Shown: positions 2,657 to 23,662, counted from the stretch's first letter. The stretch: DNA of 32,000 nt from Ilumatobacteraceae bacterium (GCA_963695475.1 CAVOHA010000007.1:426549-458548); one strand, 5' to 3'. Notes: generated by a model not told the origin, from the letters alone. Numbers and translations: made by a program.

Positions 2657-2659
2657 CCG

Positions 2660-4245: not shown

Positions 4246-4264
4246 CGCCGGTGGGAGGAGCGAA

Positions 4265-5161: not shown

Positions 5162-6597
5162 GCGACGCGCGGAGTCGCGCGCTCACCGAGCCGGATCACG
5201 GGGATGTCCCAGCGGCGGGCGAGTTCGACCAGGACGTCGTCGTGGTCGCCGTAGACCACGCCGAGATGGTGCTCGACACCCGCACCGAAGATCGTGGCCG
5301 CCACGTCGCGGACGGGCCGATCCCAGTGGATCGTGCCGCACGTCCCGCGGTACGCGCGCGGCCGATCGAGCATCTCGCCGCCGGCGATCACGAGACCGAG
5401 TCGCCCCGAACACTGCGAAATGCGAGCGACGGTCACTCGACCGGGCTTGAGCGCGAATTCGTTGACCAGCGCCACTCGTCGATTCGGGTGCACCGTGCCG
5501 CGCACCGAGTCATCGGGGTGCGCCAGTCGCGACGACGCCACGCCGCAGTGCCACAGCACCGACGTGTCGTCGGACTCGTCGACGTCGACGAGATCCGCGA
5601 TGAACGGATCGGCCCCGGCCACGAGCTGCAGCACGAGTGCCGTGATCGAGCCGAGGACGTCGGCTTCGCAGACACCCGGCACACGATCCTCGGTCAGCAT
5701 GGCGTGCGGCGTGCAGGCGGCGCCGCCGAACCGGTCCATGCACTCGGGCCAGCAGCGCGTCGCGACTGCGGCCAGCCCGCGACCGTCGACGAAGTGGCGC
5801 ATCCCGCAGTACAGACGGGCGCTCGGCTCGAGATCGTCTCGGGTCAGTCCGGCGTCGAGCGACAGCGTGGACGAGACGCGCCCGAGCACGTGGTCGACGT
5901 CGATGCGTTCGGCGTCGGTCGCCCGATCGAACAGGTCGTCGAGCATCAGCCGGTCGACCTGCACCCCGAACATCCACTCGATGAGGTGGTCGTTCCCCTC
6001 ACACGGTTCGAAACCCGTCGGTGGCTCGCCGATGATCCCCACCCGGCTGCGATGCAGTCGCTCGATCACGCGGTCGGCCGCCCGGGCGACGTGCGGATCG
6101 AACACGGCGGGACGCGCCGCGATCGTGGCCGCCCGCACGCTCGGTGATGCGCAGGCGTCGGCGATCGCCTGCGCGACGCGCTCGCCGCTGTCGGGTTGTG
6201 CCGGGTCGACGTGGACGAACGCGCATCGGTGGCGTCGCCGACGCAGCGAGTAGGCCGCGAGGTTCGCGCCACACAGCGAGTTCAACCGCAGGCGTTCGCC
6301 GTGCCGGGCCTCGGGAAACGACCAGACGACGATCGGTACGTCCGAGGCGTCGGCGATCGAGATCACCGTCGAGGCATCGGTGAAGGTCGCTTGGAGGACG
6401 ATCACGGCGTCGACTCGCTGATCGACCGCTGACCCGACGGCCGTGGCCATCGAGACGGCATCGGTGCAGACATCGCCCTCGCCGACCATCGTGACGCCGA
6501 TGCCGGCCAACACCTGTCGGGCAGCCGACGCCAGCACGGTGCCGAGCGGTACGTCGAAGGTGGGGCGACCGAGGGTCAACACCGCTGCGGTCGTCAT
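5134..6597 (-). CDS. L-fucose / L-arabinose isomerase-like family protein
   Basis: From MTTAAVLTLGRPTFDV (ATG 6597-6595). It has an N-terminal Rossmann-like segment, LNSLCGANL, WHCGVAS and a C-terminal HHLGVVYGDH, as in FucI/AraA-like sugar isomerases. The upstream 112 codons of the ORF look non-coding. An alternative ATG lies at 6615. The 3' end overlaps the convergent USP gene by 28 nt. Confidence 0.55.
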   Translation of the reverse strand: MTTAAVLTLGRPTFDVPLGTVLASAARQVLAGIGVTMVGEGDVCTDAVSMATAVGSAVDQRVDAVIVLQATFTDASTVISIADASDVPIVVWSFPEARHGERLRLNSLCGANLAAYSLRRRRHRCAFVHVDPAQPDSGERVAQAIADACASPSVRAATIAARPAVFDPHVARAADRVIERLHRSRVGIIGEPPTGFEPCEGNDHLIEWMFGVQVDRLMLDDLFDRATDAERIDVDHVLGRVSSTLSLDAGLTRDDLEPSARLYCGMRHFVDGRGLAAVATRCWPECMDRFGGAACTPHAMLTEDRVPGVCEADVLGSITALVLQLVAGADPFIADLVDVDESDDTSVLWHCGVASSRLAHPDDSVRGTVHPNRRVALVNEFALKPGRVTVARISQCSGRLGLVIAGGEMLDRPRAYRGTCGTIHWDRPVRDVAATIFGAGVEHHLGVVYGDHDDVLVELARRWDIPVIRLGERATPRVAQSSVSQSG

Positions 6598-6795
6598 CGC
6601 GCCGCCATCCAGCATCGAACGTCGTCCACATCTCCACGATGGGCGCATGCGGCCTGCGTCGACAGTGCCGAAAGCCCCACCGGAGTGCATGTGACCGAGG
6701 ACCCTGGGCGAGCACGCGGTGGCGGTGAACCATGGATGTTCTCGACGAGCGAGACGCCGTCTTGCTGCCGACACGACTGGTGAAAGGACTGCATC

Positions 6796-7008
6796 ATGAA
6801 GGCGCACACGGGTGACACACTCGTCATTTCGGGCCACGAGGTCGGCCGCCCCAAGCGAGTCGGCAGGATCGAGGAGGTCCGTGGCGACGACGGTGGGCCT
6901 CCCTACCGCGTGCGGTGGCGCGAGGACGACCACGTCACGCTGCTGTTCCCCGGCCCCGACTGCACGATCGAACCGATGGGTTCCGACGACGAGAAGGGAG
7001 CGGAGTGA
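6796..7008 (+). CDS. DUF1918 domain protein (70 aa)
   Basis: MKAHTGDTLVISGHEVGRPKRVGRIEEVRGDDGGPPYRVRWREDDHVTLLFPGPD matches the characteristic DUF1918 pattern (GD.L...G......R.G.I.EVRG.DG.PPY.VRW). GAAAGGA Shine-Dalgarno upstream. Confidence 0.7.
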   Translation: MKAHTGDTLVISGHEVGRPKRVGRIEEVRGDDGGPPYRVRWREDDHVTLLFPGPDCTIEPMGSDDEKGAE

Positions 7009-7466
7009 TGAAGGTCAGTGACTTCACCTGGCGCGACCCGGTGACGATCTCAGTGTCCGACACGATCCAGGCCGCGGCGCAGTTGCTCGCCGACGCCGGT
7101 GTCGGTTCGTTGGTCGTGGTGGACGGCGATCGCCCGGTGGGCGTCGTCACCGATCGGGACCTGGTGGTCCGGGCGATGGCGCGGGGCCTCGGGCCCGACG
7201 GCCGGGTCGACGGCGTCATGTCGATGGGCGTCGTCGCACTGGATGCCGACGACGACGTCGAGGAGCTGTACGCCGTGTTCGGTCGTCATGCGATCCGGCG
7301 GGTTCCGGTCGTCGACCGCGACCGAGTGGTCGGCGTGATCAGCCTCGACGACGCGCTCGTCTCGACCGCGAGCCAGCTGGCGGTGCTGTCCGGCGTGCTC
7401 TCCACCCAGATCGACTACCCGCACGTCCGGGACGAAGCCGAGCCCCCGGCGGTGATCCCCTCCTGA
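7008..7466 (+). CDS. CBS domain-pair protein (152 aa)
   Basis: The ATG at 7008 overlaps the DUF1918 TGA (TGATG). Two CBS repeats are present (GVVTDRDLVVRAM and GVISLDDALV). Confidence 0.8.
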   Translation: MKVSDFTWRDPVTISVSDTIQAAAQLLADAGVGSLVVVDGDRPVGVVTDRDLVVRAMARGLGPDGRVDGVMSMGVVALDADDDVEELYAVFGRHAIRRVPVVDRDRVVGVISLDDALVSTASQLAVLSGVLSTQIDYPHVRDEAEPPAVIPS

Positions 7467-7481
7467 CCGCGCGGTCCTTGG

Positions 7482-7506
7482 CCTCTGGCGCTGCACGGCG
7501 CAGAGG
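7482..7506 (+). terminator. GC-rich hairpin downstream of the CBS gene (possible terminator or attenuator before ppsA)
   Basis: CCTCTGGCG (7482-7490), loop CTGCACGG, then CGCAGAGG (7499-7506). This gives an 8-bp stem with one bulged G and no U-tract. Confidence 0.25.
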
Positions 7507-7544: not shown

Positions 7545-9866
7545 ATGGCGACCGCCGACATTCAGACAGTTCCTCGTTCCGACTCGCCGAGTGCCGCCGA
7601 GCCCTCGACGATTGCGCTCTCCGAGGTCGGATCGTCCGATGTCCTCCTCGTGGGAGGCAAGGGCGCCAACCTGGGAGAGATGCTCGCGAGCGGCTTTCCC
7701 GTTCCCGACGGCTTCGTCGTGACCGCGGCCGCGTACCGACGGGTGGTCGACGAGTCGGGGATCCGACAGCGCCTCGCCGACATCACCGCAGCCGCGGCGA
7801 CGGCGGATGCCGGTGAGCTGACCGAACTGGCGCGCACGGCCCGCGACCTGCTGGGCGAGGTGTCGCTGCCCGATGACCTCATCGCCGAAGTGACGCGTAT
7901 GTACGCAGCCCATTGCGCCGGCGCGCTGGTCGCCGTGCGATCGTCCGCAACGGCCGAGGACACCGCGGAGACCTCCTTCGCGGGGATGAACGAGTCGTTC
8001 ACCAACGTCACCGCCGTCGACCTCCTCGATCGGCTGATCGACTGCTGGATCTCGCTGTTCGGTGAGCGTGTCGTGTCCTATCGAGCCGAACGCGGGCTGG
8101 CCGACGAGCCGGCGATCGCCGTGGTCGTCCAGCAGATGGTGAGTTCGGACCGCTCGGGCGTCATGTTCACCGCTGATCCGGCCCGCCGTGACCAGGTGAT
8201 GATCGAGGGTGCCTTCGGGCTGGGCGAGATCGTCGTGTCCGGCGCCGTCGAACCCGACACCTACCGCGTCGATCGGGAGTCGGTCGGCGTCCGTGAGATC
8301 CGCATCGGGCACAAGGCGGCGCGGATCGTGAGCGGTCCCGACGGCGATCGTCACGAGGTCGTCGAGGGGAGCGAAGCCTGGAGCCGGGTGCTGTCCGACG
8401 AGGAGATCCGGGCCGTCGCCTCGATCGGCCTCGACATCGAGCGGCACTACGGTGTCCCCCAGGACATCGAGTGGTCCTACGTCGGCGATCGTTTGTACAT
8501 CGTGCAGTCGCGGCCGATCACCACGCTCGACATGGAGGCCGACGTCGACGACGAGCCGCTGCTTCGCGGCCTGGGGGTCGGTACCCGATCCGGTGTCGGT
8601 GCGGTGCGGATCCTCACGTCCCCGGCCGACGGCCACCTGCTGGCCGACGGTGACGTGTTGGTGGCCGAGATGACATCGCCCGACTGGGTGCCGACCATGC
8701 GCCGTGCTGCGGCCCTCATCACCGATGCCGGGGGCAGCACGTGCCATGCGGCGATCGTCAGCCGCGAGCTGGGCCTCCCCGCTGTCGTCGGCACACGCTC
8801 GGCCACCGCCGACCTGCGCGACGGCGATGTGGTCACGGTCGACGCCCGCCGGGGCATGGTGTTCGCCGGTGGACAGCATGTCGCTGTCCCCACCGTGGTC
8901 GAGCGCAGCGCGCAGACCGTGACGACGGGTGCCGAGCCCCTCGCCACGCGGTTGTACGTGAACCTGGCGATCGCCGACCGGGCCGAGGAGATCGCGGCGC
9001 TCGATGTCGACGGCGTGGGCCTGCTGCGCGGCGAGTTCATGGTGACCGAAGCGCTTGCCGGCCGTCATCCACGTGCGCTGATCGCGAGCGGTGGACAGGG
9101 CGAGTTCGTCGACCGCATGTCGTCGCAGCTCGGTCGCATCGCGTCGGCGTTCGCGCCGCGGCCGGTCGTGTACCGGACGATGGACTTCCGGTCCAACGAG
9201 TTCCGGGGGCTCGAGGGCGGTGAGCAGTACGAACCGCTCGAACAGAACCCGATGATCGGCTACCGCGGGTGCTATCGCTACCTCCACGACACCGAGACCT
9301 TCGCGCTCGAACTCGAGACGCTCGCTCGGGTCCGCGAGGCGTCGCCCAACCTGCACGTGATGATCCCGTTCGTCCGCACGAAGTGGGAGCTCGAAGCGTG
9401 TCTCGAAGCGATGGCGCAGAGCCGACTCGGTCGCCAAACCGGTCTGCGGACCTGGGTCATGGCCGAGGTGCCGTCGGTCATCCCACGGATCGCGGAGTAC
9501 GCGGCGCTCGGGATCGACGGCGTGTCGATCGGGTCCAACGACCTCACGCAACTGATGCTCGGCGTCGATCGTGACTCCGAGGTGCTGGCCGAGCTGTTCG
9601 ACGCTCGCGACACCGCGGTGCTGTGGGCGATCGAGCAGATCATCTCGGCGTGCCATCGTGCCGGGATCACGTCGTCGCTGTGCGGCTTGGCGCCGTCGTC
9701 CGATCCGGAGTTCGCGGAACTCCTGGTGCGGATGGGGATCACGTCGATTTCGGTCGACGCCGACGCGGTCGGGCCGGCCCGACGAGTCCTCGCGTCCGCT
9801 GAACGGCGAATCCTGCTCGAGCACGCGAGATCCCGGCCGATCACCGGCGACGGGAGCAGTGGGTGA
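7545..9866 (+). CDS. ppsA: Phosphoenolpyruvate synthase (pyruvate, water dikinase)
   Basis: N-terminal ATP-grasp region ([23 protein letters not shown]). Phosphohistidine swivel motif [22 protein letters not shown]-terminal PEP/pyruvate TIM barrel (IGSNDLTQL, catalytic-Cys loop SSLCGLAPS). 773 aa. Confidence 0.9.
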
Positions 9867-12664
9867 TGACCACCGAGGTCTGGCAGGTGGCGCGTGGCGA
9901 ACTCGGGCTCGCATCGGACGCGAACGACGTGAACATCGCGGACCTGGCCGTGTCGCGCCACGTGCGCGCCGGCCGCGGGGAGCAGACCGCCCTGCGGTGG
10001 TTCTCGCGCGACGACCTCGACACCGAGCGCCCGGTCGACATCACGTACGCGATGCTCGAACACCGCATCAACCGATTCGCCGGTGGGCTGCACCGCCACG
10101 GCTTCGACCCCGGGTCCGGTGTGGCAACGCTCGCCGGGCGCATTCCGGAGCTGTACGTCGCGGCGCTCGGCACGCTGCGCGCCCAGTGCGTGTACTCGCC
10201 GTTGTTCAGCGCGTTCGGCCCGGAGCCGATCGCGCAGCGGCTCGCGATCGGCAAGATCCGCGTCCTGGTCACGACGCCGGTGCAGTACCGACGCAAGGTG
10301 ACGAAGATCCTCGACCGCCTCCCCAGCCTCGAGCTCGTGTTGATCATCGGCGCCGACGAGGGCTCGTTGCCCGATCCCCCCGACACCCGAACGACCGTGA
10401 TGTCGTTCGGTCGCTTCGTCGGCGAGGGCCACGATGTGTACGCCGCCGCCGCCACTGCCCCCGACACGCCGTCGCTCCTGCACTTCACGAGCGGCACGAC
10501 GGGGGCGCCGAAGGGAGCGGTCCACGTGCACGAAGCGGCGGTTGCGCACTACGCCACGGCGCGGTCGGTGCTCGACCTGCACAACGGTGACGTGTACTGG
10601 TGCACCGCCGACCCCGGATGGGTGACCGGTACCTCGTACGGCATCGTCGCCCCGCTGCTGCACGGCGTCACGTCGATCATCGACGAAGCCGACTTCGATG
10701 CGGCGCGGTGGTATCGGATCCTGCGGGACCAGGCCGTCAACGTGTTCTACACCGCACCGACCGCGATCAGGATGCTCGAACGCGTCGGCGACGACGCGCA
10801 ACCCGGCGACTTCCCGGCGTTGCGGCTGGTGGCGAGCGTCGGTGAGCCACTCGACGCGGAGTCGGTGCTCTGGGCGCAGCAGGTGTTCCGGGTGCCCGTG
10901 CTCGACACGTGGTGGCAGACCGAGACGGGAGCGATCATGATCGCCAACCGCAAGGATGACGAGGTCCGGCCCGGGTCGATGGGCCGTCCGGTCGACGGGA
11001 TCACGGCGACGCTGCTCGAACGAGATGCGCAGGGCGAGTTGATCCTCGGTCCGGAGGGGGCGGCGCGCGAGGTGGTCGAGCCGGGAGCGACCGGCGAGAT
11101 CGCCGTGCGCGCCGGGTGGCCGTCGATGTTCCGCGGCTACCTCGACCGTGACGAGAAGTACCGGTCCTGCTTCGTCGAGGCGGGTGATGGTGCCGACGGG
11201 GATTGGTACCGATCGGGCGACCTCGCCCGACGTGACGAGGACGGCTACTTCTGGTTCGTCGGCCGCGGTGACGACGTGATCAAGACCGCCGGACACCTGA
11301 TCGGGCCGTTCGAGGTCGAGGCGGTGCTGGACGAGCACCCCGCAGTGGTCGAATCCGGGGTGATCGGCAAACCCGACCCGACGGCGGGAGCGGTGATCAA
11401 GGCGTTCGTCGTCCTCCACCGCGGTCACGAACCGAGCGCGGAGTTGCACACCGATCTCATGGCGCACTGTCGGCGTCGTCTCGGCGCGGCGGTGTCGCCG
11501 CGCGAGATCGAGTTCGCCGACTCGCTCCCGCACACCCGCAGCGGCAAGATCATGCGGCGGGTCCTGCGGGCCCGCGAGCTGGGCGAAGACGAAGGCGACA
11601 CGTCGACACTCGAGACCGTCCCGTCCACGACGGGGGCCCGAACGATGACGCGCTTTCGACTCGACGGTGTCACCGCAGACGAAGCCCGCGGATTGCTCGG
11701 TGACATGATCCGAGTCCGGGTGTTCGAAGAACGGTGCGCCGAGTTGTACGCCGAGTCGAAGATCCGGGGGTTCTTGCATCTCTACATCGGCGAGGAGGCG
11801 GTGGCGGCCGGCGTGATCGGTGCGCTCGATCCGGCGGACAACGTCCTCGCCACGTACCGCGAGCACGCGCACGCCCTGCTGCGTGGTGTCCCCGCCGAAT
11901 CGATCATGTCCGAGATGTTCGGCAGGGCGACCGGGTGCTCGGGCGGGCGGGGTGGCTCGATGCACCTGTTCGACGAGTCGACCCGCTTCTACGGCGGCAA
12001 TGCGATCGTCGGCGGGCACCTCCCACTCGCCGTCGGCCTGGCGTTGGCCGATCAGATGCTGCACCGTCGAGCCGCCACCGTGTGCTTCTTCGGCGAGGGT
12101 GCGATGGCCGAGGGGGAATTCCACGAGGCGATCAACCTCGCCGCGCTGTGGAACCTCCCGGTCCTGTTCTGCTGCGAGAACAATCGTTACGCGATGGGCA
12201 CATCGCTCGAATCCAGTGAGTCGCAGGTCGACCTCGCGCTCAAGGCGGCGGCCTACGCGATTCCGGCCTGGGTGGTCGACGGGATGGATCCGTTGGAGGT
12301 CCGTCGCGCGGCGCGCCGCGCGCTGGCGACGATCGAGGCGGGCGGAGGCCCGGTGTTCATCGAGTTCCAGACGTATCGGTTCCGGGCGCACTCGATGTTC
12401 GACCCCGATCTGTACCGGGACCCCGCCGAGATCGAGTACTGGAAGCAACGGGACCCGATCGACGTCCTCGGCCGGTGGCTCGCCGCCGAGGAGCTGGTCA
12501 CGACCGCCGAGGTCGACGCACTGTGGGAACGGGCACGATCCGAGACCGATCAGGCGGTGGTCGCGGCCGACGCTGCGCCACTCGAACCCGTCGAGGGGCT
12601 GCTCGAACACGTCACCGCGGCTCGTGCCGGCCGACACGGAGAGGAGCGGAACGATGTCCACTGA
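9866..12664 (+). CDS. In-frame fusion: AcsA-type AMP-forming acetyl/acyl-CoA synthetase (N-terminal, about 9866-11614) joined to the TPP-dependent 2-oxoacid (pyruvate/acetoin-type) dehydrogenase E1 alpha subunit (C-terminal, 11645-12664)
   Basis: Synthetase motifs: [64 protein letters not shown] 10-aa linker [10 protein letters not shown] follows with no in-frame stop. E1alpha motifs then appear: [54 protein letters not shown]. The start ATG at 9866 (or GTG at 9863) overlaps the ppsA TGA. Confidence 0.8.
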
Positions 12665-13679
12665 CACGGCCTCCGACGTCGTCGAGACAGGGCCGGTTCT
12701 GGAAACGACGTACCGCGAGGCGATGCGGCTGGCGATCCGTGAGGCACTGGAGACCGACGACCGTGTGATCGTGCTCGGTGAGGACGTCGCCGACTACGGC
12801 GGCACGTATGCGGTGACCAAGGGCCTCCACGAGGAATTCGGACGCGACCGCGTGCGCAACACACCGCTGTCCGAGTCCGGCTTCGTCGGTGCCGGCATCG
12901 GCGCAGCGCTCGGCGGGCTCCGGCCGATCGTCGAGATCATGACCGTCAACTTCAGCCTGTTGGCGCTCGACCAGATCGTCAACACGGCGGCCACGCTGCT
13001 CCACATGTCGGGCGGGCAGTTCAACGTCCCGGTCGTGATTCGGATGACCACCGGCGCGGGTCGGCAGTTGGCGGCGCAGCATTCTCACAGCCTCGAGGGC
13101 TGGTACGCACACGTTCCCGGGTTGAAGGTCGTCGCCCCGGCGACCGTTGCAGACGCACGGTGGATGTTGCCGACGGCGCTGGCCGACCCGAACCCCGTGA
13201 TCATCTTCGAGCACAACGCGCTGTACGGCATGAAGGGAACGCTCGATCCGGACGGATCGCCCGTCGACCTCGAGACGGCCGCGATTCGTCGCCGGGGCGA
13301 CGATGTCACCCTGGTGGCGAGCGGCGGCATGGTCCCCAAGGCGCTCGCCGCCGCGGCGACGCTCGCCGAACGCGGCGTGTCGGCCGAGGTGGTCGATCTC
13401 CGATCGCTGCGCCCACTCGATGTCGCGACGCTCGAGACGTCGGTGACCAGGACACACCATGCGGTCGTCGTCGACGAGGGCTGGCGGACCGGTGGGTTGA
13501 GCGCGGAACTGTCCGCCGTGATCACCGAGGCGTGCTTCTGGACGCTCGACGCTCCGGTGCGCCGGGTGGCGGCCGCCGAAGTACCGATCCCGTACGCCAA
13601 GCACTTGGAGGACCACGCGATTCCCCAAGCGGACGACATCGTGGTCGCGGCCGTCGAACTCCTCGAGGAGGGCGCGTGA
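12654..13679 (+). CDS. 2-oxoacid dehydrogenase E1 component beta subunit
   Basis: [65 protein letters not shown] is the canonical PdhB/AcoB N-terminus, and a transketolase C-terminal-like region follows. GGAGAGGAG Shine-Dalgarno. The start overlaps the upstream gene by 11 nt. Confidence 0.9.
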
Positions 13680-14854
13680 GCGACGCAGGGGTCACGACCG
13701 CCGCGGCGGCGACCGCGACGTCCGAAACCGAGTCGTCGATCGAGTACGCGATGCCGTCCCTCGGCGCGGACATGGAGGAGGGTGCGGTCGTCGAGTGGCT
13801 GGTCGCCGTCGGCGATCACGTCGAGCGAGGACAGGTGGTCGCACGCGTCGAGACCGAGAAGTCCGACATCGACATCGAGATCTGGCACGAGGGGATCGTC
13901 GACGAGATCCTCGTGCCGACGCACCGCACGGTCCCCGTCGGGACCCCCCTCCTGCGGTTCCACGCCGCCGGAGCAGCCGTGGACCGGCCCGCGACGCTCG
14001 ACCCGGTCTCCTCCGGCGTCATCCGCGCCACACCGTTCGCACGCCGGCTCGCTGCGGATCGCGGCGTCGAACTGCGTGACATCGCCGGCACCGGGCCCGG
14101 TGGCGCGGTGCGTGCGCGCGACGTGCCCGATGTGTCCGTGCCCGTGGCGAGTCCGGCGCCGACGCCCGCCGTGCCGCGGGAGCACCGCGGCGAGCGGATG
14201 CGAACGGTCATCGCGCAGCGGATGGACCGGTCGAATCGTGACATCCCGCAGTATCGGTTGGAACGGACGGTCGACCTCGATGCGCTGCTCCGTCACCTCG
14301 CCGCCATCAACGAGGACCGCCCGGTGGCGGAGCGGATCGTGCCGGCCGCAGCATTCGTTCGAGCTGTCGCCCTGGCCGCCGGACGTCATCGAGCGCTCAA
14401 CGGGACGTGGATCGACGACGGCTTCCAGCCCGGACCCGCCGTGAACGTGTCGATCGCGATCTCGCTGCGCACCGGTGGACTCGTCACGCCGACGATCCCC
14501 GATGCCGACCGCCTGTCGCTCGACGACACGATGGCACGGATCCGCGAGTACACGACGGCGGCGAGGTCCGGGACGCTGCGATCCGAGTGGACGCGTGCCG
14601 ACAGCACGATCACCGTGACCAACCTCGGCGACCGCGGCGCCGACCTCGTGCACGGGTTGATCTCACCACCGGAGGTGGCGCTCGTGGGGTTCGGACGGAT
14701 CCTCGAACGTCCGTGGGTGGTCGACGGCGCGGTCGTCCCGAGACCCGTCGTCCACGTCACCCTCGCTGCCGACCACCGCGCAACCGACGGCGCGGTCGGC
14801 AGCCGCTTCTTGTCCACTCTCACCCGCATCCTGGAGGAGCCCGATCAGACATGA
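13676..14854 (+). CDS. Dihydrolipoamide acyltransferase (E2) with one lipoyl domain
   Basis: The GTG start overlaps the E1beta stop (GTGA). Lipoyl domain [18 protein letters not shown]...[11 protein letters not shown], with a lipoyl-lysine context. Peripheral subunit-binding domain [33 protein letters not shown]. Catalytic domain with DHRATDG. Confidence 0.85.
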
Positions 14855-15111
14855 GCAACGACACCGCGACCATCCGACTGCGGCGCGCGATCGACGATGC
14901 GATCTCGGCCGTCGCGCCCGACGTGACCGACGAACTCGCCGACCTCGATCCGGATGTCGACCTGTTCGAGGAGTTCGGACTCGACTCGATGGACCGCCTC
15001 AACATCATGACAGCGCTCGCGCAGTCGACCGGCGTCGAGATCTCCGACGACCGGTATCCCTGGCTGACGTCGATCAACCGCCTGCTGGCCGAGTTGTCGT
15101 CGGCCCGGTGA
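14851..15111 (+). CDS. Acyl carrier protein-like (phosphopantetheine-binding) protein, 86 aa
   Basis: The ATG overlaps the E2 TGA (ATGA). An acidic four-helix-sized protein with the carrier-protein serine motif LFEEFGLDSMDRLNIMTAL. Confidence 0.7.
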   Translation: MSNDTATIRLRRAIDDAISAVAPDVTDELADLDPDVDLFEEFGLDSMDRLNIMTALAQSTGVEISDDRYPWLTSINRLLAELSSAR

Positions 15112-15937
15112 TCACGAAGGCGACACCCGGGGCGGGTGCGGGAGGCGGAAGACGAGCACGGGGCACGGCGCGTGGCGAACGAAACCGGATGTGACGCTGC
15201 CCATCGTCAGCCGGGACAGACCGCTGCGCCCGTGGGACGACGCAACGATCAGCGACGCGTGGTGTCGCTGCGCGTAGGCGCACACCGCAGCGACCGGGTG
15301 CCCATCGTGCAACTCGTCGAACTCGACCGAGTGGTCGGACGCCTCGCGTAGCTCGCTGGCCAGTCGGGCGAGGTAGACGGCGTCGGTCGCCTCCCCACCG
15401 TCACCCGGTGTGGACGAGCCCGTCGCGTGGACGATCCACGGTGTGGTCCCCAGCTCGACCGCCCAGGCCACACCCAGTGGCACGGCCGCCTCTGACGCCT
15501 CCGAACCGTCGACCGTGATCACGAGGGGGCCGCAGAAGTCGTCGGGTTCGGCCTGCGGGCCCACCAGGACGATCGGGCCGAACGAGTGCCGAAGGATCTG
15601 ATCGGCGACGCTTCCGACCACTGCGGCGGAGCGCCCCTTTCCGTGCGACGCCATCACGACGAGAACGTCGGGCACCGACTCGACCAGCGCGCTGATCGTT
15701 TCGCCGACGGACCTCGCGCTCGAGCTGGACGTTCGTCGTCACCGGGACGTCCATCGGCGCGCGTCGATCGATGTCCACCGCCAACTGCTCGCGAGCGAGG
15801 TCTGCATCGACGGGATCCGACTCGACCTGCACCACCTCGACCTTGGCGTCGAACCGCCGCGCCAACGCGATGGCGACGTCGAAGCCGCGCCACGAAGCAG
15901 CCGATCCATCGATCGGCACGATGATGTGCGTGGCCAT
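15112..15937 (-). pseudogene. Tandem universal stress protein interrupted by a frameshift near 15709-15738
   Basis: After a GGAGGGGAG Shine-Dalgarno, ATG 15937-15935 starts MATHIIVPIDGSAASWRGFDVAIALARR...VTTNVQLERE. That frame then turns into Arg-rich nonsense. The USP sequence continues in the adjacent frame as SVGETISALVESVPDVLVVMASHGKGRS...LVGP, followed by a complete second USP domain that ends CPVLVF. This could be a real frameshift or a sequencing indel. Confidence 0.6.
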
Positions 15938-16142
15938 GTCGCTCCCCTCCGATACTCGGGCGTTCCGCGGGTCCACATCCAGATACGCGCGTTCGAGGTC
16001 GTGCCGCCAGGTCCGTTGGTCACTTCGGCGTCGTTTCGGCGTCACGACGCAGGGACATTCGGCCCTTGCCGTCGACGTCGCGTCGCGCGATCAATCGAGA
16101 CAGAGCCGACACGTCGCATGTCGGCAGGAAGGTGACCGAACG

Positions 16143-16391
16143 ATGTGTTTCACCGAGCCCGGATGTGTGCAGTCGATCGACGGTTCCATGGTTCGCGTCG
16201 ACACCGTGCACGGAGTGTGCGACGCATCGACACGGATGGTCGAGGCCGCCGGCACGACCGTCACGCCCGGCGACTGGGTGCTGATGTCGCTCGGCCTGGT
16301 CGTCGACGTCGTCGACGAAGCCGAAGGACGTGCGCTGCTCGAGCAGATGCGCGAACTGCACATGGGGGTCGAGCCATGGCCGATTCCGTGA
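16143..16391 (+). CDS. hypC: HypC/HybG/HupF-family [NiFe]-hydrogenase maturation chaperone
   Basis: The N-terminus begins with the obligatory Met-Cys: MCFTEPGCVQSIDGSMVRVD. It is followed by GDWVLMSLGLVVDVVDEAEG, matching the HypC pattern MC.(G/A).PG....(I/V)D ... GD(W/Y)VL.H.G.A. 82 aa. Confidence 0.75.
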   Translation: MCFTEPGCVQSIDGSMVRVDTVHGVCDASTRMVEAAGTTVTPGDWVLMSLGLVVDVVDEAEGRALLEQMRELHMGVEPWPIP

Positions 16392-17308
16392 GTGGGCTCC
16401 GCCTGGCGCTCGTCGCCGCGGGTGTATCGGGCGTGGCGGTGTACGTGAACGGGGAGGCGGTCGGACGGTTCTCCTCGGCAACGGTCTACACCACCGGAAA
16501 GAACCTCGTCGCGGGGCTGCTGCTGGTGACACTCGCGATCGCCCTGCCGCGCGCCGGGGGATCGCCTGCGCCCGCCGCCGGTCGGATGTGGTCCACCCGG
16601 GAGCGGCTCGGTCTCGCCGCCGTGGCGTTGATCGGCGGTGCGGTGCCGTTCGTCCTGTTCTTCGAGGGGCTCGCCCGTGCGACGTCGAGCGATGCCGCCT
16701 TCCTGCACAAGACCCTCGTCGTCTGGGTGGCCGTCTTTGCCGTCGCGCTGCTCGGTGAGCGACTCACGGCCCTCCATGTCGGCGCCATCGCACTGCTGAT
16801 CGCCGGGCAGGTCGCTCTCGCCGGAGGGATCAGCTCGCTGCACGTCGGGGCCGGCGAGGCGATGATCCTGGCGGCGACGATCTGCTGGGCAGCCGAGTTG
16901 ATCCTGGTGAAGCGTCTCGTCGAACGGCTGCCATCGACGACGGTCGGTGCGGCTCGGATCGGGGGCGGTGCGGTGCTGCTCGTCGTGTGGCTGGCGTTGT
17001 CCGGACGCCTCGACGAACTCGTGTCGCTGTCCATGTCGCAGTGGGCGTGGCTCCTCGTCACCGGAGGCATCCTCTCGATGTTCGTGACGGTGTGGTTCGC
17101 GGCGGTCGCCCGGGCGCCGGTCATCGACGTTGCGGCGTTGCTCGTGCCGGCTGCGGTGATCACCGGGCTCATTCGGCTCGCGGCCGAAGGAAACACTGCG
17201 CCGATCCAGGTGGTCGGCTGGTCGCTGATGCTGCTCGGGGTGGCTGCGGTGATCGCAGGGCGCCGCGCCGATCAGCGCGATCACGGTGTGATCGGGGCGG
17301 TGACGTGA
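16376..17308 (+). CDS. DMT-superfamily (EamA-like) permease, about 10 TM segments
   Basis: Two EamA-like halves of hydrophobic helices are separated by ERLTALH. The gene overlaps the hypC 3' end. An alternative GTG start at 16388 would form a GTGA overlap with the hypC stop. Confidence 0.7.
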   Translation: MADSVSGLRLALVAAGVSGVAVYVNGEAVGRFSSATVYTTGKNLVAGLLLVTLAIALPRAGGSPAPAAGRMWSTRERLGLAAVALIGGAVPFVLFFEGLARATSSDAAFLHKTLVVWVAVFAVALLGERLTALHVGAIALLIAGQVALAGGISSLHVGAGEAMILAATICWAAELILVKRLVERLPSTTVGAARIGGGAVLLVVWLALSGRLDELVSLSMSQWAWLLVTGGILSMFVTVWFAAVARAPVIDVAALLVPAAVITGLIRLAAEGNTAPIQVVGWSLMLLGVAAVIAGRRADQRDHGVIGAVT

Positions 17309-18027
17309 ACGACCCGATCGGCGTGGCTCGCTTCATGCGGTACGCCGCCCCGCCCAATCAGCGCGGATTCTGCGGGCCGTCGGGGTTCGGATCGCTCGAC
17401 CCGACGATGCCGGAGGCCCACGCGGAGGCCCGCCACCGGGCGAAGGAGTTCCTGGGTGCGTATCCGTATCTCGAGCTGTTGGCGGGCGCGGCCGGACTCG
17501 AGGACCCGCTCGCCGACGTCGCGGTCGAGGCGTACTGGCTCGGCAATCGGATGGCCGCCCGCGTCTCGACCGGCGATTTCGGGCGGTCGCTCGCCGATCG
17601 GTTCCGTGTGCGGAGCGGTCGCAACTGGGCGCCCGTGGAGTCGGCCGTGCCGGGTGCTGTCTGCAATCACGCGTTCCATGTGCTCGTCGCCTCCCCGTGG
17701 GTCGGGCTGATGCGCAGTGGCGTGGTCGACGAACCGCTCGCGATCGTCGACGAGTGTCGAGTCAGCTGGGGCAAGGTCGTGTCGATCGACGACGCGCCGC
17801 GTCACTCGGTCGAGCGCACGCCACTCGAGTGGCACAACGGCCGTCTCCTTCCCGGCCGCCTCGAGACGGTCGAGGTGTTCAGCGAGCTCCCGCTGTCGCT
17901 CGGCGATCACGTCGCCCTCCACTGGGGGTGTGTGTGCGACGTCCTGTCTCAGCGTCAACTCGCGTGGCTGCGCTCCGTGACGGCGTCGCAACTCGCCCTG
18001 TCCCACTCGATCGGACGGCCCTGCTGA
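17305..18027 (+). CDS. Conserved hypothetical protein with an N-terminal YAAPPN.RGFCGP domain and a C-terminal HypC-like segment
   Basis: The GTG at 17305 overlaps the permease stop (GTGA), and the gene's own stop overlaps the hyhB ATG (TGATG). The C-terminal CRVSWGKVVSIDD...GDHVALHWGCVCDVLSQRQ parallels the HypC motifs. I recall similar actinobacterial DUF proteins but cannot verify the family here. Confidence 0.55.
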   Translation: MNDPIGVARFMRYAAPPNQRGFCGPSGFGSLDPTMPEAHAEARHRAKEFLGAYPYLELLAGAAGLEDPLADVAVEAYWLGNRMAARVSTGDFGRSLADRFRVRSGRNWAPVESAVPGAVCNHAFHVLVASPWVGLMRSGVVDEPLAIVDECRVSWGKVVSIDDAPRHSVERTPLEWHNGRLLPGRLETVEVFSELPLSLGDHVALHWGCVCDVLSQRQLAWLRSVTASQLALSHSIGRPC

Positions 18028-19208
18028 TGAGCCCGCGTGCCGCTACACCACCCATCGTGACCGGTCCGGATGGGCTGACCGGCATCGTCGACGAACTCGA
18101 TCGCGCCGGCTTCGACGTCTGGGGGCCGGCCGTGCGCGACGGCGTCATCGTCACGCGTCGCATCGACGGGAGTGACGAGTTGCCGCTCGGATACCGCGTG
18201 GAGCAGTCGCCGGGTTCGTCTCGCCTGCTCCAGACCGGCGACCGCTCACGCTTCGGGTGGGCGGTCGGCCCGCAACCGTGGAAGCCGCTGCTCCATCCGC
18301 CATCGGTCACCACGATGCACATCACCCAGCGGTCCGCCGCGCAACCCGTGACCGTGAGCCTGCGTGGCCGGCCGCCACGACCGCTGGCGCTGTTCGGGAT
18401 GCGGCCCTGCGATCTCGCCGCACTCGAGACATTGGATCGCGTCCTCATCGATGCGCCGCCGGTCGCCGAGCCCACCTACGACGGTCGTCGCACCGACGCG
18501 TTCCTCGTGGTGGTCAACTGCGCCGTTCCCGCGTCGACGTGCGCCTGTACGTCGTTCGGGACGGGACCCCACGTCGGCGAGCCCGACGGCGATCATGCCG
18601 GCCACGATCTGGAGATCACCGAACTCCTTCCGTCCGATCCCGCCGAGGATCCCGAGTACGTCGTCGCCGCGATGAGCGAGCGAGGCGCTTCGCTGATGGC
18701 CCGTGTCGCCGAGCGCGTCGCGGTCGACCAACTCCGAGATCGACACGTCGCGGCAATCGCCGATCAACGGGCGGCCGCGGCGACGGCGATCTCGCGCCGT
18801 GCGCCCACCGATCGCGTGCGCGGCGCCTTGGCAGATGCCCACGATCTGCACCGCTGGAGCGAGCTCGAAGGGCAGTGTGTCGCGTGCGGCAACTGCACCG
18901 CGGTGTGTCCCACGTGCTTCTGCACGACCGTCAACGACATCGGCGACCTGACGGGAACGCAGGTCGAGCGACACCGTGACTGGGAGTCGTGCTTCTCGCT
19001 CGAGTTCAGCCGTCTGGGTGACCACTCCGTTCGCTCGTCGGTTGCGTCTCGCTACCGCCAGTGGATGACACACAAGCTCGGAACGTGGCACGACCAGTTC
19101 GGCGAGTCGGGCTGCGTCGGGTGCGGTCGGTGCACGACGTGGTGTCCGGTCGGTATCGACTTCTTCGCTGTTGCCGATGGCATCGTCGATGCAGTGGAGG
19201 CGCGGTGA
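18027..19208 (+). CDS. hyhB: Group 3b [NiFe]-hydrogenase beta subunit (AsrA-like 4Fe-4S dicluster protein)
   Basis: Two ferredoxin-type cluster motifs are present, CVACGNCTAVCPTCFC and CVGCGRCTTWCPVG. The architecture and position upstream of the gamma, small and large subunits match sulfhydrogenase/Hyh operons. Confidence 0.8.
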   Translation: MSPRAATPPIVTGPDGLTGIVDELDRAGFDVWGPAVRDGVIVTRRIDGSDELPLGYRVEQSPGSSRLLQTGDRSRFGWAVGPQPWKPLLHPPSVTTMHITQRSAAQPVTVSLRGRPPRPLALFGMRPCDLAALETLDRVLIDAPPVAEPTYDGRRTDAFLVVVNCAVPASTCACTSFGTGPHVGEPDGDHAGHDLEITELLPSDPAEDPEYVVAAMSERGASLMARVAERVAVDQLRDRHVAAIADQRAAAATAISRRAPTDRVRGALADAHDLHRWSELEGQCVACGNCTAVCPTCFCTTVNDIGDLTGTQVERHRDWESCFSLEFSRLGDHSVRSSVASRYRQWMTHKLGTWHDQFGESGCVGCGRCTTWCPVGIDFFAVADGIVDAVEAR

Positions 19209-20056
19209 TGTCCGCTGCCGAGCTCGTCGACATGCCCGTTCCCCACCGCATCGTCGCGCGTCACGAGGAGACCGTCGACGTGGTGACCCTGCGCGTGCAG
19301 CCGGTCGCGACGCAGCTCCCGGACTTCCAGCCGGCTCAGTTCTCGATGATCGGGGTGGTGGGTGTCGGCGAGGTCCCGATCTCGATCAGTTCGACCTGCG
19401 ACGACCGGACGGCCCACGACTACACGCTGCGCCGCGCCGGCGCGGTCACCAACGCACTGTGGAATCGCCGAGTCGGTGACGTGGTGACCGTGCGCGGACC
19501 GTTCGGCCGACCCTGGGACCTGCAACGCGCCGACGGTCGTCACGCGGTGTTCATCGCCGGCGGCATCGGGATCGCGCCGCTGCGCGCCGCGATCGTCGAA
19601 CTTGCCACCCACCGGGCGGCCACCCCGAGCCGCCTCTCCGTCCTGGTCGGCGCAGCGACGCCGAGTGACCACCTCTACGAACCGTGGCTGGCCGACCTCG
19701 CGGCCGGCGGCGTCGAGGTGCTGCGGTCGGTGGATCGAACGGGTGACGTCGATGACTGGCCACATGCGATCGGATTCGTGACCGAGCTGATTCCCCCGGT
19801 CGTCGCGGAGTGGACCGGGAACGTTGCGGTCAGCGCCTACGTGTGCGGCCCGGACGCGATGATGTCTGCTGCCATCGACACCCTGCGTCGGTGCCGTGTT
19901 GCACCCGCCGATGTCGAGGTGACCCTCGAGCGCAACATGCAGTGTGCCAACGGTTGGTGTGGGCACTGCCAGCTGGGGCCACTGCTGGTGTGCCGAGACG
20001 GCCCGGTTGCAAGCGCAGTCGAACTCGGCGACCTGCTCGAACGGAGCGAGTTGTGA
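19208..20056 (+). CDS. hyhG: Group 3b [NiFe]-hydrogenase gamma subunit (FAD/NAD(P)-binding, 2Fe-2S; AsrB/PyrK-like)
   Basis: Ferredoxin-reductase-type fold ([19 protein letters not shown]). C-terminal cluster motif [22 protein letters not shown]. The ATG overlaps the hyhB stop (TGATG). Confidence 0.8.
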
Positions 20057-20832
20057 ACCGGCCCGTGACGCTCGGTCGCCCCGAGGCCGTTCCCACGCTC
20101 GCCGTCTGGAAGTTCGCGTCGTGCGACGGATGCCAGTTGTCGCTGCTCGACTGCGAGGACGAGCTGTTGGCGATCGGCAATTCGATCCGCATCGCGTCGT
20201 TTCCCGAGGCCTCGAGTGCGATCGTCGACGGCCCGTACGACCTCTCGCTCGTCGAAGGCTCGGTCACCACGCCGGACGATGTCGAACGGATCCGGGCGAT
20301 CCGTGCCGCGTCGACGACCCTGGTGACGATCGGTGCGTGCGCGACGGGAGGTGGGATCCAGGCGCTGCGCAACGGTGCCGACATCGAGGAGTATCTCTCG
20401 ATCGTGTACGCCCACCCCGCGTACATCTCGACGCTGGCGACCTCGACGCCGATCGCCGACCACGTGGACGTCGACTTCGAACTCCGCGGATGCCCGATCG
20501 ATCGGCGACAACTCGTCGAGGTCGTCGCGGCCTACCTGACCGGCCGTCCGCCACGCATCGCATCGACGAGCGTGTGTACCGAGTGCAAGGCTCGTCGAGT
20601 CGCGTGCGTCATGGTCGTCGACGGCGAACCGTGCCTGGGTCCGGTCACGCACGCCGGGTGCGGCGCGCTGTGCCCCTCGTTCCGCCGCGGCTGCTACGGG
20701 TGTTTCGGGCCGGCCGAGACCGCTGACACGGCAACCCTCGATCGTCAGCTCGAACGACTCGGACTCGACGAGCGCGACCGGGAACGCCTGTGGCGGGGGT
20801 TCAGCGGGTGGAAGCTCGGAGGCCCGCGATGA
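20053..20832 (+). CDS. hyhS: Group 3b [NiFe]-hydrogenase small (delta) subunit
   Basis: NuoB/hydrogenase-small-subunit pattern [23 protein letters not shown], plus a C-terminal Cys-rich region ([27 protein letters not shown]). The GTG start overlaps the hyhG stop (GTGA). Confidence 0.85.
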
Positions 20833-22139
20833 CCCACAAACACGTCGACTTCCGCGTGCCGACGCTCGCCCGTGTCGAAGGTGAGGGTGCCCTGCACGTC
20901 GAAGTGCGTGACGACGTCATCACCGACCTTCGCCTGGAGATCTACGAGCCGCCCCGCTTCTTCGAGGCGTTCCTGCGCGGACGGGGATTCGGCGAACCGG
21001 TCGACATCACCGCTCGTATCTGCGGGATCTGCCCCGTCGCCTACCAGATGTCGGCGGCGGCGGCACTCGAGCAGATCGCCGGCGTGACCGTCGACGGCCA
21101 ACGCCACCAACTCCGTCGACTGCTGTATGCGGGCGAGTGGATCGAGAGCCACGTGCTCCACATCGGCTTCCTCCACGCTCCGGACTTCCTCGGTGCCAGT
21201 TCGGGCTTGGAGCTCGCTGCCAGCGACCCCGAGCTGATCACGAACGTGCTGCGCCTCAAGAAGATCGGCAACGACGTGATGGAGGTGGTCGGCGGCCGGC
21301 CGATCCACCCGGTCAACGTCCGGCTCGGAGGATTCCACCGAGCGCCGGACCGAGAGGCCATCGCGGCGCTTGCCGAGCCCCTCGAATGGGCGCACGGAGC
21401 GGCGGTCGACCTGGTCCGCTGGGTCGCCGGATTCGACTTCCCCGAGCTCGAGGTCGACCACGAACTGGTGTCGCTGCGCGGGGTCGACTGCTACCCGGTC
21501 CTGGGTCGCAGGATCGTGTCCGATCGCGGGCTCGACCTCGACGTCACCGAGTTCGACCGCGAGTTCTCCGAGGAGCACGTTGCACACTCCACGGCACTCC
21601 ACGGGCGTCGTCGAACCGGTGACATCTACCTCACCGGTCCGCTGGCCCGGTGGGCCAACAACCGTGACCTCGTGCCCACCGAGGTCGACGCGCTCGCAAT
21701 CGAACTCGGTGTGGCGACGGTCGAACGCAATCCGTTTCGCAGCATCGTGATCCGTGCCCTCGAAGTGCTGATCGCCGTGATCCAGGCCGAAGAGATCGTC
21801 GCTGCGTATGCGGAGCCGGAACCGTCGGCGGTCGACGTGATCCCGTCGGCAGGTGTCGGTTGGGGGGTGACCGAAGCACCGCGGGGAATCCTCGTCCATC
21901 GCTACGAAACCGACGCGGCGGGCACGATTCTCGACGCCCGCATCATCCCGCCGACCGCGCAGAACCAACCGGCGATCGAAGCCGACGTTCGCCGAGTGGT
22001 CGAAGATCACCTGGCCCACGATCGCACCGACGCCGAGCTCCAGCACCGGTGTGAGACGGCGGTACGAAACCACGACCCGTGCATCTCGTGCGCCACCCAC
22101 TTCTTGTCCGTCGACGTCCGACGGGTGGACGGGCGATGA
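20829..22139 (+). CDS. hyhL: Group 3b [NiFe]-hydrogenase large (alpha) subunit
   Basis: N-terminal Ni-Fe ligand motif [10 protein letters not shown] and C-terminal DPCISCATH, followed by a 12-aa tail of the kind removed by the endopeptidase. 436 aa, the size typical of group 3 enzymes. The ATG overlaps the hyhS stop (ATGA). Confidence 0.9.
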
Positions 22140-22687
22140 ACGCCGCCCGTCCGGCGGTGGTGATCGGCGTGGGTCATCGCGACCGTGCCGACGACGGCAT
22201 CGGCCCCGCGGTGGCAGAGGCACTCGGCGAGCGCAGCGACCAGGTGCGCACGATCGTGCGCGAAGGCGACCTCGCGGTGCTGCCGCTGCTGTGGGACGGC
22301 GACGACGACGTCGTGATCGTCGATGCGTTGGCCGGCGTCGGGTCGCTCGGACAACTCGTCGAGCTCGACCCCGACGACCTGACCGCGGGTGCCGGGCTGT
22401 CGACGCACGGGCTGAACATCGCCGACGGCATCGAGCTGGCCCGTCGGCTGCACCGGTTGCCGGCCCAACTGCGGGTGTTCGGCGTGACGGGACAGGACTT
22501 CGGGTACGGGCCGATGTCGAGCAGCCTGCGTCGGCGCGTCGACCCACTGGTCGAGGAGCTGATGCTCGAACTCGGAGTTGCGGAGGTTCAGGTCGTCGCC
22601 GGGGAGGGCGGCGTGCGACGATCGACCGATGCCGACCAATCGCCGTGTAGCCCTGACCCGCCGTCCGATCGGTCAGGCCACCCCTGA
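22136..22687 (+). CDS. Hydrogenase maturation endopeptidase (HycI/HoxW-like)
   Basis: VVIGVGHRDRADDGIGPAVAEAL ... VVIVDA ... LSTHGL is the conserved protease pattern (GN..R.DDG.G; D; H). The ATG overlaps the hyhL stop (ATGA). A low-complexity C-terminal tail of about 35 aa overlaps the next gene by 59 nt. Confidence 0.75.
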   Translation: MNAARPAVVIGVGHRDRADDGIGPAVAEALGERSDQVRTIVREGDLAVLPLLWDGDDDVVIVDALAGVGSLGQLVELDPDDLTAGAGLSTHGLNIADGIELARRLHRLPAQLRVFGVTGQDFGYGPMSSSLRRRVDPLVEELMLELGVAEVQVVAGEGGVRRSTDADQSPCSPDPPSDRSGHP

Positions 22688-23627: not shown

Positions 23628-23657
23628 CGGAGTGGGTCAGACCCACCCCGCTACGCG
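23621..23657. terminator. Strong hairpin between convergent genes (likely bidirectional intrinsic terminator)
   Basis: CGCGTAGCGGAGTGGGT (23621-23637), loop CAG, then ACCCACCCCGCTACGCG (23641-23657). This forms a 17-bp stem with a single A/C mismatch. It includes the TAG stop of the oxidoreductase and ends 6 nt before the stop of the minus-strand gene. Confidence 0.55.
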
Positions 23658-23662
23658 GGTCG

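Follow-up and report, generated by a model that had tools for sequence, protein, structure and literature searches.

What becomes of the acyl group on a lipoyl-bearing E2 acyltransferase when the E2 gene runs directly into a gene for an acyl carrier protein (ACP)? The question is raised by a 32,000-nucleotide (nt) stretch of DNA from an Ilumatobacteraceae bacterium (GCA_963695475.1 CAVOHA010000007.1:426549-458548), the whole of which is called the window here, and in which an earlier reading of the sequence alone (the original prediction) had noticed such a pair and proposed a relay of acyl groups from lipoyl to phosphopantetheine. The 2-oxoacid dehydrogenase complexes are textbook coenzyme A (CoA)-dependent machines on large E2 cores, and the known cases in which an E2 loads a carrier are few and belong to rare natural-product pathways. 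Our analysis showed that E2 and ACP are members of a five-gene cassette, in the order AcsA-type ligase, E1alpha, E1beta, E2, ACP, that recurs in about 100 loci, and that the cassette E2s have lost two features of the CoA-dependent enzymes. Judged from these sequences, the E2 probably transfers acetyl groups from its lipoyl arm to the phosphopantetheine of ACP.

The 86-amino-acid (aa) product of the last gene had been picked out by its carrier-protein serine motif, and this identification was borne out by a search with the PP-binding profile PF00550 (32.9 bits, cut-off 20.8) and by the invariance of LDSMDRL, with Ser46, across 76 ACP relatives. Its AlphaFold2 model (pLDDT 88.6) has the four-helix ACP fold with Ser46 at the N-terminus of helix II, and reaches TM-scores of 0.77-0.82 to many solved type II ACPs. 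It falls below all NCBIfam ACP equivalog cut-offs and thus lies outside every named ACP subfamily. There is very little doubt that it is a real ACP and belongs to the cassette. The first search with this protein returned 86 relatives, almost all metagenomic; ten of the 11 genome loci come from Ilumatobacteraceae or Ilumatobacter metagenome-assembled genomes (MAGs) or from an unclassified Actinomycetota MAG, and the named cassette loci come from Ilumatobacteraceae/Acidimicrobiia MAGs. The cassette order is kept in every locus of the window's ACP sub-family with enough sequence, down to the most distant members listed (45-49% ACP identity), whose surroundings are Clp/DisA genes or an N-type ATPase operon, and of 80 metagenome loci, with ACP identities as low as 41%, nearly all carry the cassette. 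When 1.8 billion representatives were searched with a profile, a far larger set of ACPs with LDSMDH or IDSMDF motifs came up, with an out-group family of at least 1,901 clusters in which three of three look-ups revealed the cassette. In all, the ACP family comprises more than 2,000 protein clusters, and its pairing with the cassette spans three ACP sub-families. In the literature searched we found no published description of this cassette.

ACP is seen only rarely apart from E2 or the ligase. Its start overlaps the E2 stop by 4 nt in 78 of 84 E2 genes. In loci L066 and L081, exceptionally, it lies 4-8 kb from E2, and in L061 and L068 it follows hydrogenase genes. In L035 (3-709) it stands directly 3' of the ligase with neither E1 nor E2 between them, and the 767-nt contig P0138 has an AcsA-type ligase C-terminus joined to an ACP of the cassette family. 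An apparent fusion of another kind is seen in L022 (5749-8004), where E1beta and E2 read as one 751-aa protein, as in QncL.

The E2 had been said to possess all the canonical parts, and both Pfam and alignment agree. The lipoyl domain (Biotin_lipoyl, E 2.7e-17) has Lys62 (nt 13859-13861) within VETEKS, aligned with ETDKA of human E2p; a peripheral subunit-binding domain (PSBD, E3_binding, PF02817; E 2.2e-11) occupies residues 116-150; and the catalytic domain (2-oxoacid_dh, PF00198; E 1.3e-52) has its catalytic His367 (nt 14774) within DHRATDG. The best solved relatives of the window E2 are the E2s of pyruvate dehydrogenase (PDH), and the columns of the catalytic His, Asp and Thr are invariant in all 64 cassette E2s. 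What has been lost is, in the first place, the arginine that salt-bridges the 3'-phosphate of CoA, Arg450 in A. vinelandii and Arg480 in C. glutamicum (Bruch et al., bioRxiv 10.1101/2020.07.24.212647). This column is Arg in four of four solved CoA-dependent E2s (1EAA, 8X03, 3DUF and 1C4T), whereas in the 64 cassette E2s it holds Leu (62), Ile (1) or Ala (1), the window residue being Leu208 (nt 14297); the control alignment consisted of the PDB sequences, for which A. vinelandii numbering gives R450, S558, H610, N614 and L637. The other loss is at the C-terminus: the window E2 ends in ...LEEPDQT, without a hydrophobic C-terminal helix, and the cassette E2s all stop 3-4 residues past a conserved Pro (PDQT, PE[DE]L, PEDLL), whereas the solved E2s have a longer hydrophobic end that forms the trimer-trimer 'knob' (PELLLMEA, PTRLLLDV, IRAILL). 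The window E2 also scores below every curated equivalog cut-off for the E2s of PDH, 2-oxoglutarate dehydrogenase (OGDH) and branched-chain 2-oxoacid dehydrogenase (BCKDH), with 190.7 against the 445 bits required by TIGR01349 at best.

Because the helix that joins trimers into a core is missing, we infer that the cassette E2 remains a free trimer. CoA is reported to enter the active-site channel of canonical cores from the core interior (Mattevi et al.); in a free trimer, the entrance normally used by CoA would lie open to a 10-kDa carrier protein. The loss of both the arginine and the helix is what would be expected if a protein-borne phosphopantetheine had replaced CoA, and the lost CoA clamp, together with an ACP that is an obligatory member of the cassette, makes acetyl-S-ACP the likely product. 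Leu at the CoA-Arg column and a PExL C-terminus, with GHLIG in the accompanying ligase, could serve as sequence markers for similar E2s.

That the acyl group concerned is acetyl is suggested by the other cassette enzymes. E1alpha scores 405.8 against TIGR03182 (PDH_E1_alph_y, cut-off 393.85) and E1beta 390.5 against PRK09212 (PDH E1 beta, cut-off 321); the former shares 72-90% identity with its orthologues in L001-L015 and 61-78% in the wider set, and the latter, with a mean Kimura distance of 0.29, is more conserved than any other cassette gene. That E1 types as a pyruvate dehydrogenase, and not as a ketose-phosphate enzyme of the Qnc kind discussed below, argues for pyruvate. The ligase passes the NCBIfam model for acetate--CoA ligase (PRK04319; 738.6, cut-off 729, with 794.4 for its L022 orthologue), and its best match in the PDB is 9g79, a solved 572-aa Acs (444 bits, about 50% identity). 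Aligned to S. enterica Acs (2P2F), it keeps V310, T311, V386 and W414 of the acetate pocket, A357 and G524, and the catalytic Lys609, which is Lys562 within SGKIMRR; the Arg191 region aligns ambiguously, with a gap beside YRRK. TWWQTETG or [NS]WWQTETG, plus SGK, is found in every cassette ligase with this region on its contig. With the acetate pocket kept, the group handled would be acetate, or at most propionate. One other residue differs: the A8 motif is GHLIG in 40 of 40 cassette ligases, with Leu479 (window 11297) in place of S. enterica Arg526, a column that is Arg in the four closest solved Acs and a residue that, according to PMC10455477, is strongly conserved and matters for the CoA-dependent step. 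As an aside, the ligase of L021 (2775-4674) looks broken, with only an AMP-binding_C fragment called and an antisense open reading frame (ORF) over the N-terminal part; both halves are still found by tblastn, and gene decay or an assembly error could be responsible.

In the window, ligase and E1alpha are read as one 933-aa ORF, and the original prediction had raised the coupling of ACP to this fused adenylation domain. The fusion itself did not stand. It results from an extra base in a G5C3 run (11632-11644, + strand) that joins the two frames; in a DNA alignment with L006, L007 and L008, a one-base gap appears in all relatives at this point, just 5' of the ancestral ATGA overlap. In all other loci there is a stop after the ligase, which makes the fusion unique to the window among about 40 related loci, and in the closest relative, L104 (88% ACP identity), ligase and E1alpha are two genes with a 4-nt overlap. 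Indel-type frameshifts were seen in several related assemblies, and this one-base indel is probably a strain-specific mutation or an assembly error. We therefore rejected the fusion as a sign of a physical complex between ligase and E1alpha. What did gain support is the coupling of ligase and ACP, through the P0138 fusion, the L035 adjacency and co-variation.

The simplest reading of these sequences is that ACP meets both E2 and the ligase. Its pairing with E2 is suggested by adjacency, by the two changes in E2 and by published precedents, and its pairing with the ligase by the three observations just named. In the co-variation ('mirror tree') comparison, which covers 10 loci and 45 non-independent pairs and gives a hint only, ACP distances follow those of the ligase with r = 0.88 (partial r = 0.65-0.76), and the partial r with the E2 catalytic domain is -0.04 to 0.35. 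We tentatively propose, as a model whose chances we put a little short of even, that the five components form an acetyl-handling machine, with ACP as its private carrier of acyl groups and the ligase discharging it. Judging from family membership, E1 would decarboxylate pyruvate and reductively acetylate the lipoyl arm of E2. The E2 catalytic domain would then move the acetyl group to the phosphopantetheine thiol of ACP and not to free CoA, as its lost arginine, its lost core-forming helix and its pairing with ACP suggest. In the most speculative step, the ligase would run in reverse, so that acetyl-ACP, AMP and pyrophosphate (PPi) yield acetate, ATP and holo-ACP. Finally, the dihydrolipoyl arm would be re-oxidised by an unlinked housekeeping E3 bound to the PSBD, with an AhpD-like CxxC protein at hand in many relatives.

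The direction of the first step seems fixed, since PDH-type decarboxylation is effectively irreversible with a reductant at the level of lipoamide; flow would thus start from pyruvate and pass through acetyl-dihydrolipoyl-E2 to the acceptor, and the reverse arrangement, a pyruvate-forming E1/E2 fed by the ligase, was rejected on thermodynamic grounds. The direction of the ligase is less clear, and that it works towards ATP is, taken on its own, doubtful. None of the cassettes seen lacks only the ligase or only E1/E2, a pattern that suggests action in series and not redundant loading. Discharge by the ligase is favoured by this series action, by the lack of an acetyl-ACP consumer in the conserved cassette core, where no thioesterase, ketosynthase or condensation gene was found, and by the setting of genes for PEP synthase, hydrogenase, universal stress proteins (USP), CBS proteins and PPK2 described below.

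As to the re-oxidation of the lipoyl arm, the original prediction had remarked that no E3 is encoded. This is true of the window, which has no Pyr_redox-type gene; a crude search for the redox motif CxNxGC(I/V)P found nothing either there or in all of 104 sequences (940 kb in total). The absence is, however, weak evidence, as the PSBD is kept and unlinked lpd genes are normal in actinobacteria. The kept PSBD makes the housekeeping E3 the default re-oxidant. In about 17 loci a 113-aa AhpD-like protein of the CMD family, with CxxCxxxH (52 bits against TIGR00778, cut-off 27.8), is encoded beside the cassette, often directly 5' of the ligase or just 3' of ACP; the window lacks it. The mycobacterial AhpD-DlaT-Lpd system offers an analogy on which this protein could oxidise the dihydrolipoyl arm in place of E3.

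Table 1. Genes of the cassette and its surroundings in the window, and examples of accessory genes in related loci (positions in nt).
Feature	Position	Strand	Remarks
PEP synthase (pyruvate, water dikinase)	7545-9866	+	First operon gene in the window; Pfam PPDK_N, PEP-utilizers, PEP-utilizers_C
AcsA-type AMP-forming acetate ligase	9863-11644	+	N-terminal half of the 933-aa ORF (9863-12664); AMP-binding, AMP-binding_C
PDH-type E1 alpha (thiamine diphosphate (ThDP)-binding)	11645-12664	+	Ancestral start ATG at 11645; E1_dh, E 4.7e-79
PDH-type E1 beta	12654-13679	+	Transket_pyr, Transketolase_C; start 12654 confirmed
E2 dihydrolipoyl acyltransferase, 392 aa	13676-14854	+	Lipoyl domain, PSBD, catalytic domain (Pfam)
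Dedicated acyl carrier protein, 86 aa	14851-15111	+	PF00550; Ser46 (nt 14986) is the predicted phosphopantetheine site
Universal stress protein	15112-15675	-	Convergent with ACP; Usp, E 4.4e-28
EamA transporter, DUF6390, four-subunit NiFe hydrogenase and HycI protease	16145-22687	+	Pfam
PPK2 (polyphosphate kinase 2)	27200-28261	-	E 2.6e-94
AhpD-like protein, L001	4453-4794		
AhpD-like protein, L008	4398-4733		
AhpD-like protein, L013	1636-1971		
AhpD-like protein, further loci			L021-L023, L025, L028, L029, L040, L042, L047, L049, L065-L067, L072, L081, L087, L093
GNAT-like protein, L035	1637-2575	-	
GNAT-like protein, L022	8473-9432	-	
GNAT-like protein, L017	10180-11082	-	
GNAT-like protein, L066	2838-3812		

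What the machine might be for is suggested by its neighbours (Table 1). The window, with a G+C content of about 69%, has the cassette within a densely packed + strand operon that begins with phosphoenolpyruvate (PEP) synthase, a gene above its NCBIfam equivalog cut-offs (793.5 against 598 and 759.4 against 739.75) that also lies directly 5' of the ligase in L004, L006, L007, L008, L015 and L104. On the other side, a Usp orthologue occupies the matching place in L006, L009, L013, L015 and L104, and the EamA/DUF6390/hydrogenase block is found 3' of ACP in L001, L006, L007, L010, L012, L015 and L104 and convergent with ACP in L004. Judged by its subunits (Fer4_22, NAD-binding/FeS, small and large), the hydrogenase looks like group 3b. 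The stress-type neighbours in related loci include a PAS-HisKA_3/GerE two-component pair, USP, a Rv2632c-like protein, HSP20 and a hibernation factor, which look like a DosR/dormancy regulon. This placement of the cassette among universal stress proteins, with PEP synthase on one side and an NAD(P)-linked NiFe hydrogenase on the other, suggests a use in hypoxia or energy stress, with PEP converted to pyruvate and on to acetate and the reducing equivalents leaving as H2. Electrons from the lipoyl arm would pass through the housekeeping E3 to the NAD(P)-linked hydrogenase in the window, or to the AhpD-like CxxC protein in many relatives. In the direction of pyruvate, PEP synthase can convert AMP to ATP, and some PPK2 enzymes phosphorylate AMP or ADP from polyphosphate; the PPK2 gene of the window would fit a theme of AMP recycling beside PEP synthase and the AMP-forming ligase. 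In its fullest form, which we hold to be somewhat unlikely, the proposal would be one of CoA-independent substrate-level phosphorylation, in which a free-trimer E2, a private ACP and a reversed ligase make up a self-contained pyruvate-to-acetate survival module of uncultured Acidimicrobiia.

The remainder of the window holds several further genes that we record for themselves. The EamA transporter and DUF6390 genes (16145-18027) are kept between ACP and the hydrogenase in L001, L002, L006, L010 and L104, and in some loci a HypC-like gene joins this block; the C-terminal end of a window ORF at 15771-16391 also looks HypC-like (it begins MCFTEPGC...). Positions 1-7500 and 22500-27200 resemble a stress or dormancy island, with three further USP-type ORFs (one of them a weak match at 15401-16045), two CBS-pair proteins, a metallo-beta-lactamase-fold protein, a GT4 glycosyltransferase, an MGH1-like glycoside hydrolase, a zinc-ADH-like reductase, an F420H2-dependent quinone reductase, an acyltransferase, an LPG-synthase-like membrane protein and a patatin-like lipase. 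A DUF222/HNH endonuclease gene of a type common in actinobacteria lies at 29624-31195, and the adjoining 28300-29600 has no clear gene.

Several observations weigh against the model in which E2 charges ACP and the ligase discharges it. The ATGA at which E2 and ACP meet, which the original prediction had taken as direct coupling of the two genes, is indeed present (TGA 14852-14854, ATG 14851-14853), but overlaps occur at every operon junction (9863-9866, where the PEP synthase stop overlaps the ligase start, 12654-12664, 13676-13679 and 14851-14854); it thus marks membership of the operon and no special bond between E2 and ACP, and we gave it correspondingly little weight as a specific sign of their partnership. 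The co-variation analysis is too small a basis to carry much. The thioester-forming direction is the normal one for AMP-forming ligases, and to work in reverse the cassette ligase would need PPi, whose supply the locus does not explain. The ligase may still use CoA, as it passes the acetate--CoA ligase equivalog and as the Arg584 equivalent, which contacts the CoA 3'-phosphate, is kept in 39 of 39 cassette ligases. The invariant Leu in its A8 motif has no clear reading; adenylation domains that load carrier proteins presumably keep this Arg. The window yielded no phosphopantetheinyl transferase (PPTase) gene. Many cassette loci (for example L017, L019 and L021-L023) lack hydrogenase and PEP synthase, so that the fermentation story may hold for the window's sub-family only. 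Finally, about 35 loci encode, within 0.1-3 kb of ACP, a roughly 310-aa protein that combines a weak GNAT domain with a C-terminal part containing Cys. It is fused to ACP in P0152, and these links hint at a downstream consumer of acetyl-ACP; it could also be a regulator of the ligase.

This last protein has a place in an explanation that shares the E2-to-ACP step, which the changes in E2 support, but turns the ligase round: E2, from pyruvate, and the ligase, from acetate and ATP, would both acetylate ACP, and the acetyl-S-ACP would be used by an enzyme outside the core, which in many relatives could be the GNAT-like acetyltransferase. The ligase would then work in its usual direction, the layout of P0138 would be that of an adenylation domain followed by its carrier domain, the Cys-rich GNAT-like protein so often near ACP, and fused to it in P0152, would have a role, and there would be proposed precedents in the 2-oxoacid-dehydrogenase-like complexes listed in PMC5384830 as priming carrier proteins that feed acyltransferases. 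We nevertheless consider it rather unlikely, as two redundant loaders would hardly be kept together in every cassette seen, and as neither the window nor any of the 16 loci in its sub-family (L001-L015 and L104) has the GNAT-like gene, with no consumer gene conserved across the family. The points that speak for ordinary CoA chemistry lead to another possibility, namely that acetyl-CoA is made by a stress-induced PDH isoenzyme together with the housekeeping E3, alongside an ordinary acetyl-CoA synthetase, with ACP loaded by the ligase only or co-transcribed for an unrelated role such as lipid remodelling. It would account for the retained PSBD and catalytic residues of E2, for the scores of E1alpha, E1beta and ligase above curated PDH and acetate--CoA ligase cut-offs, for the kept Arg584 equivalent, and for start/stop overlaps that are the rule in the operon and an unlinked E3 that is common anyway. 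It does not account for an arginine missing from 64 of 64 cassette E2s and present in four of four solved ones, for an E2 score so far below the PDH E2 equivalog cut-off (190.7 against 445), or for an ACP that is rarely found apart from E2 or ligase among more than 2,000 clusters and with which no lipid-synthesis gene is conserved, and we regard it as decidedly unlikely.

Two more specialised roles appear highly improbable. One is the supply of a C2 unit, taken from a ketose phosphate and carried as glycolyl-S-ACP, to an assembly line encoded elsewhere, as in the quinocarcin, naphthyridinomycin and scleric acid pathways (Qnc, Nap and Scl). These pathways and the cassette have their components in common (ThDP-dependent E1, lipoyl-bearing E2, discrete ACP), and the apparent E1beta-E2 fusion of L022 is like QncL. 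The E1, however, types as PDH, an acetate-specific ligase is always present and the neighbours are stress and energy genes; moreover, the Pfam annotation of the window bears out the earlier statement that it holds no nonribosomal peptide synthetase (NRPS) or polyketide synthase (PKS) genes, and no NRPS, PKS, condensation-domain or PPTase gene was found in it or in the related loci whose genes were listed. The other role, which we rate as equally remote, is in cofactor supply: LipB lipoylation starts from octanoyl-ACP, and with an ACP adjoining a lipoyl protein, ligase and ACP might make octanoyl- or lipoyl-ACP to lipoylate the E2 next door. Against this, the ligase keeps a small acetate pocket, including the Trp414 equivalent in TWWQTETG, no lipB, lipA or lplA gene is present in the window or in the related loci listed, and the changes in the E2 catalytic domain would be left unexplained.

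Ilumatobacteraceae and related Acidimicrobiia are common in soils, sediments and waters. If the relay from E2 to ACP is real, a complex of central metabolism has been rewired in these bacteria to hold an acetyl pool apart from the CoA pool, and the cassette may also bring to light a new means by which ATP is conserved, or acetyl groups are supplied, in hypoxia or dormancy.

Among known systems, the closest in composition are the E1/E2/ACP sets QncN/QncL/QncM of quinocarcin and naphthyridinomycin and SclQ1-4 of scleric acid, which make glycolyl-S-ACP. In these as in the cassette, genes for E1, a lipoyl E2 and a discrete ACP occur together, and transfer of the acyl group from the lipoyl arm is assumed to be to the carrier protein and not to CoA; E3 is not among the Scl cluster genes quoted. 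The Qnc, Nap and Scl sets sit in NRPS clusters and use ketose phosphates, whereas the cassette has a PDH-type E1 and an obligatory acetate ligase and comes without NRPS, condensation or PPTase genes in the window and in the related loci whose genes were listed; they also occur as sporadic biosynthetic clusters, and the cassette extends across a whole lineage of uncultured Acidimicrobiia-type bacteria. The Qnc type had been thought the only precedent for transfer from E2 to ACP, a view that proved too narrow: PDH- and BCKDH-like complexes that prime carriers have also been proposed for the pepteridine cluster of Photorhabdus and for the N-acyl amide and pristinamycin IIa pathways (listed in PMC5384830). 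These belong to secondary metabolism and have condensation or acyltransferase partners; they are not known to include a ligase of the acetyl-CoA-synthetase type, with no reported loss of the E2 CoA-binding Arg or core-forming helix.

The cassette shares with the canonical PDH complex of the Geobacillus or mitochondrial type its domain set, lipoyl Lys, PSBD and catalytic His, Asp and Thr, and differs from it in having no linked E3, in an E2 without the CoA Arg and the C-terminal helix, and in an ACP and a ligase that are obligatory. In some actinobacterial E2s, C-terminal residues or the entire helix are gone, and the E2p of Corynebacterium and Mycobacterium is trimeric through a three-residue, Phe-containing insertion that folds the helix back, while keeping Arg480 and binding CoA in crystals (bioRxiv 10.1101/2020.07.24.212647). 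Like that E2p, the cassette E2 is not expected to build a 24- or 60-mer core; unlike it, the cassette E2 has no such insertion, the helix being simply missing, and lacks the Arg. For the ligase, the nearest parallel to a reversed reaction is presumably Acs1 of Syntrophus aciditrophicus, which we take to be an acetyl-CoA synthetase reversed for ATP synthesis, on free acetyl-CoA. In citrate lyase and malonate decarboxylase, acetate:ACP ligases acetylate a dedicated carrier thiol; the citrate-lyase ligase does not belong to the ANL family, and its carrier bears a different prosthetic group. To our knowledge, neither Acs1 nor the ligases of citrate lyase and malonate decarboxylase are coupled to a 2-oxoacid dehydrogenase. 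On the evidence of its genes, then, what appears new in the cassette relative to the known carrier-priming sets is the acetate ligase as a member and the changes in E2, and with its proposed function it would be a lineage-wide version of an E2 that loads a carrier, working on acetyl units, with a fixed acetate ligase and stress genes as neighbours.

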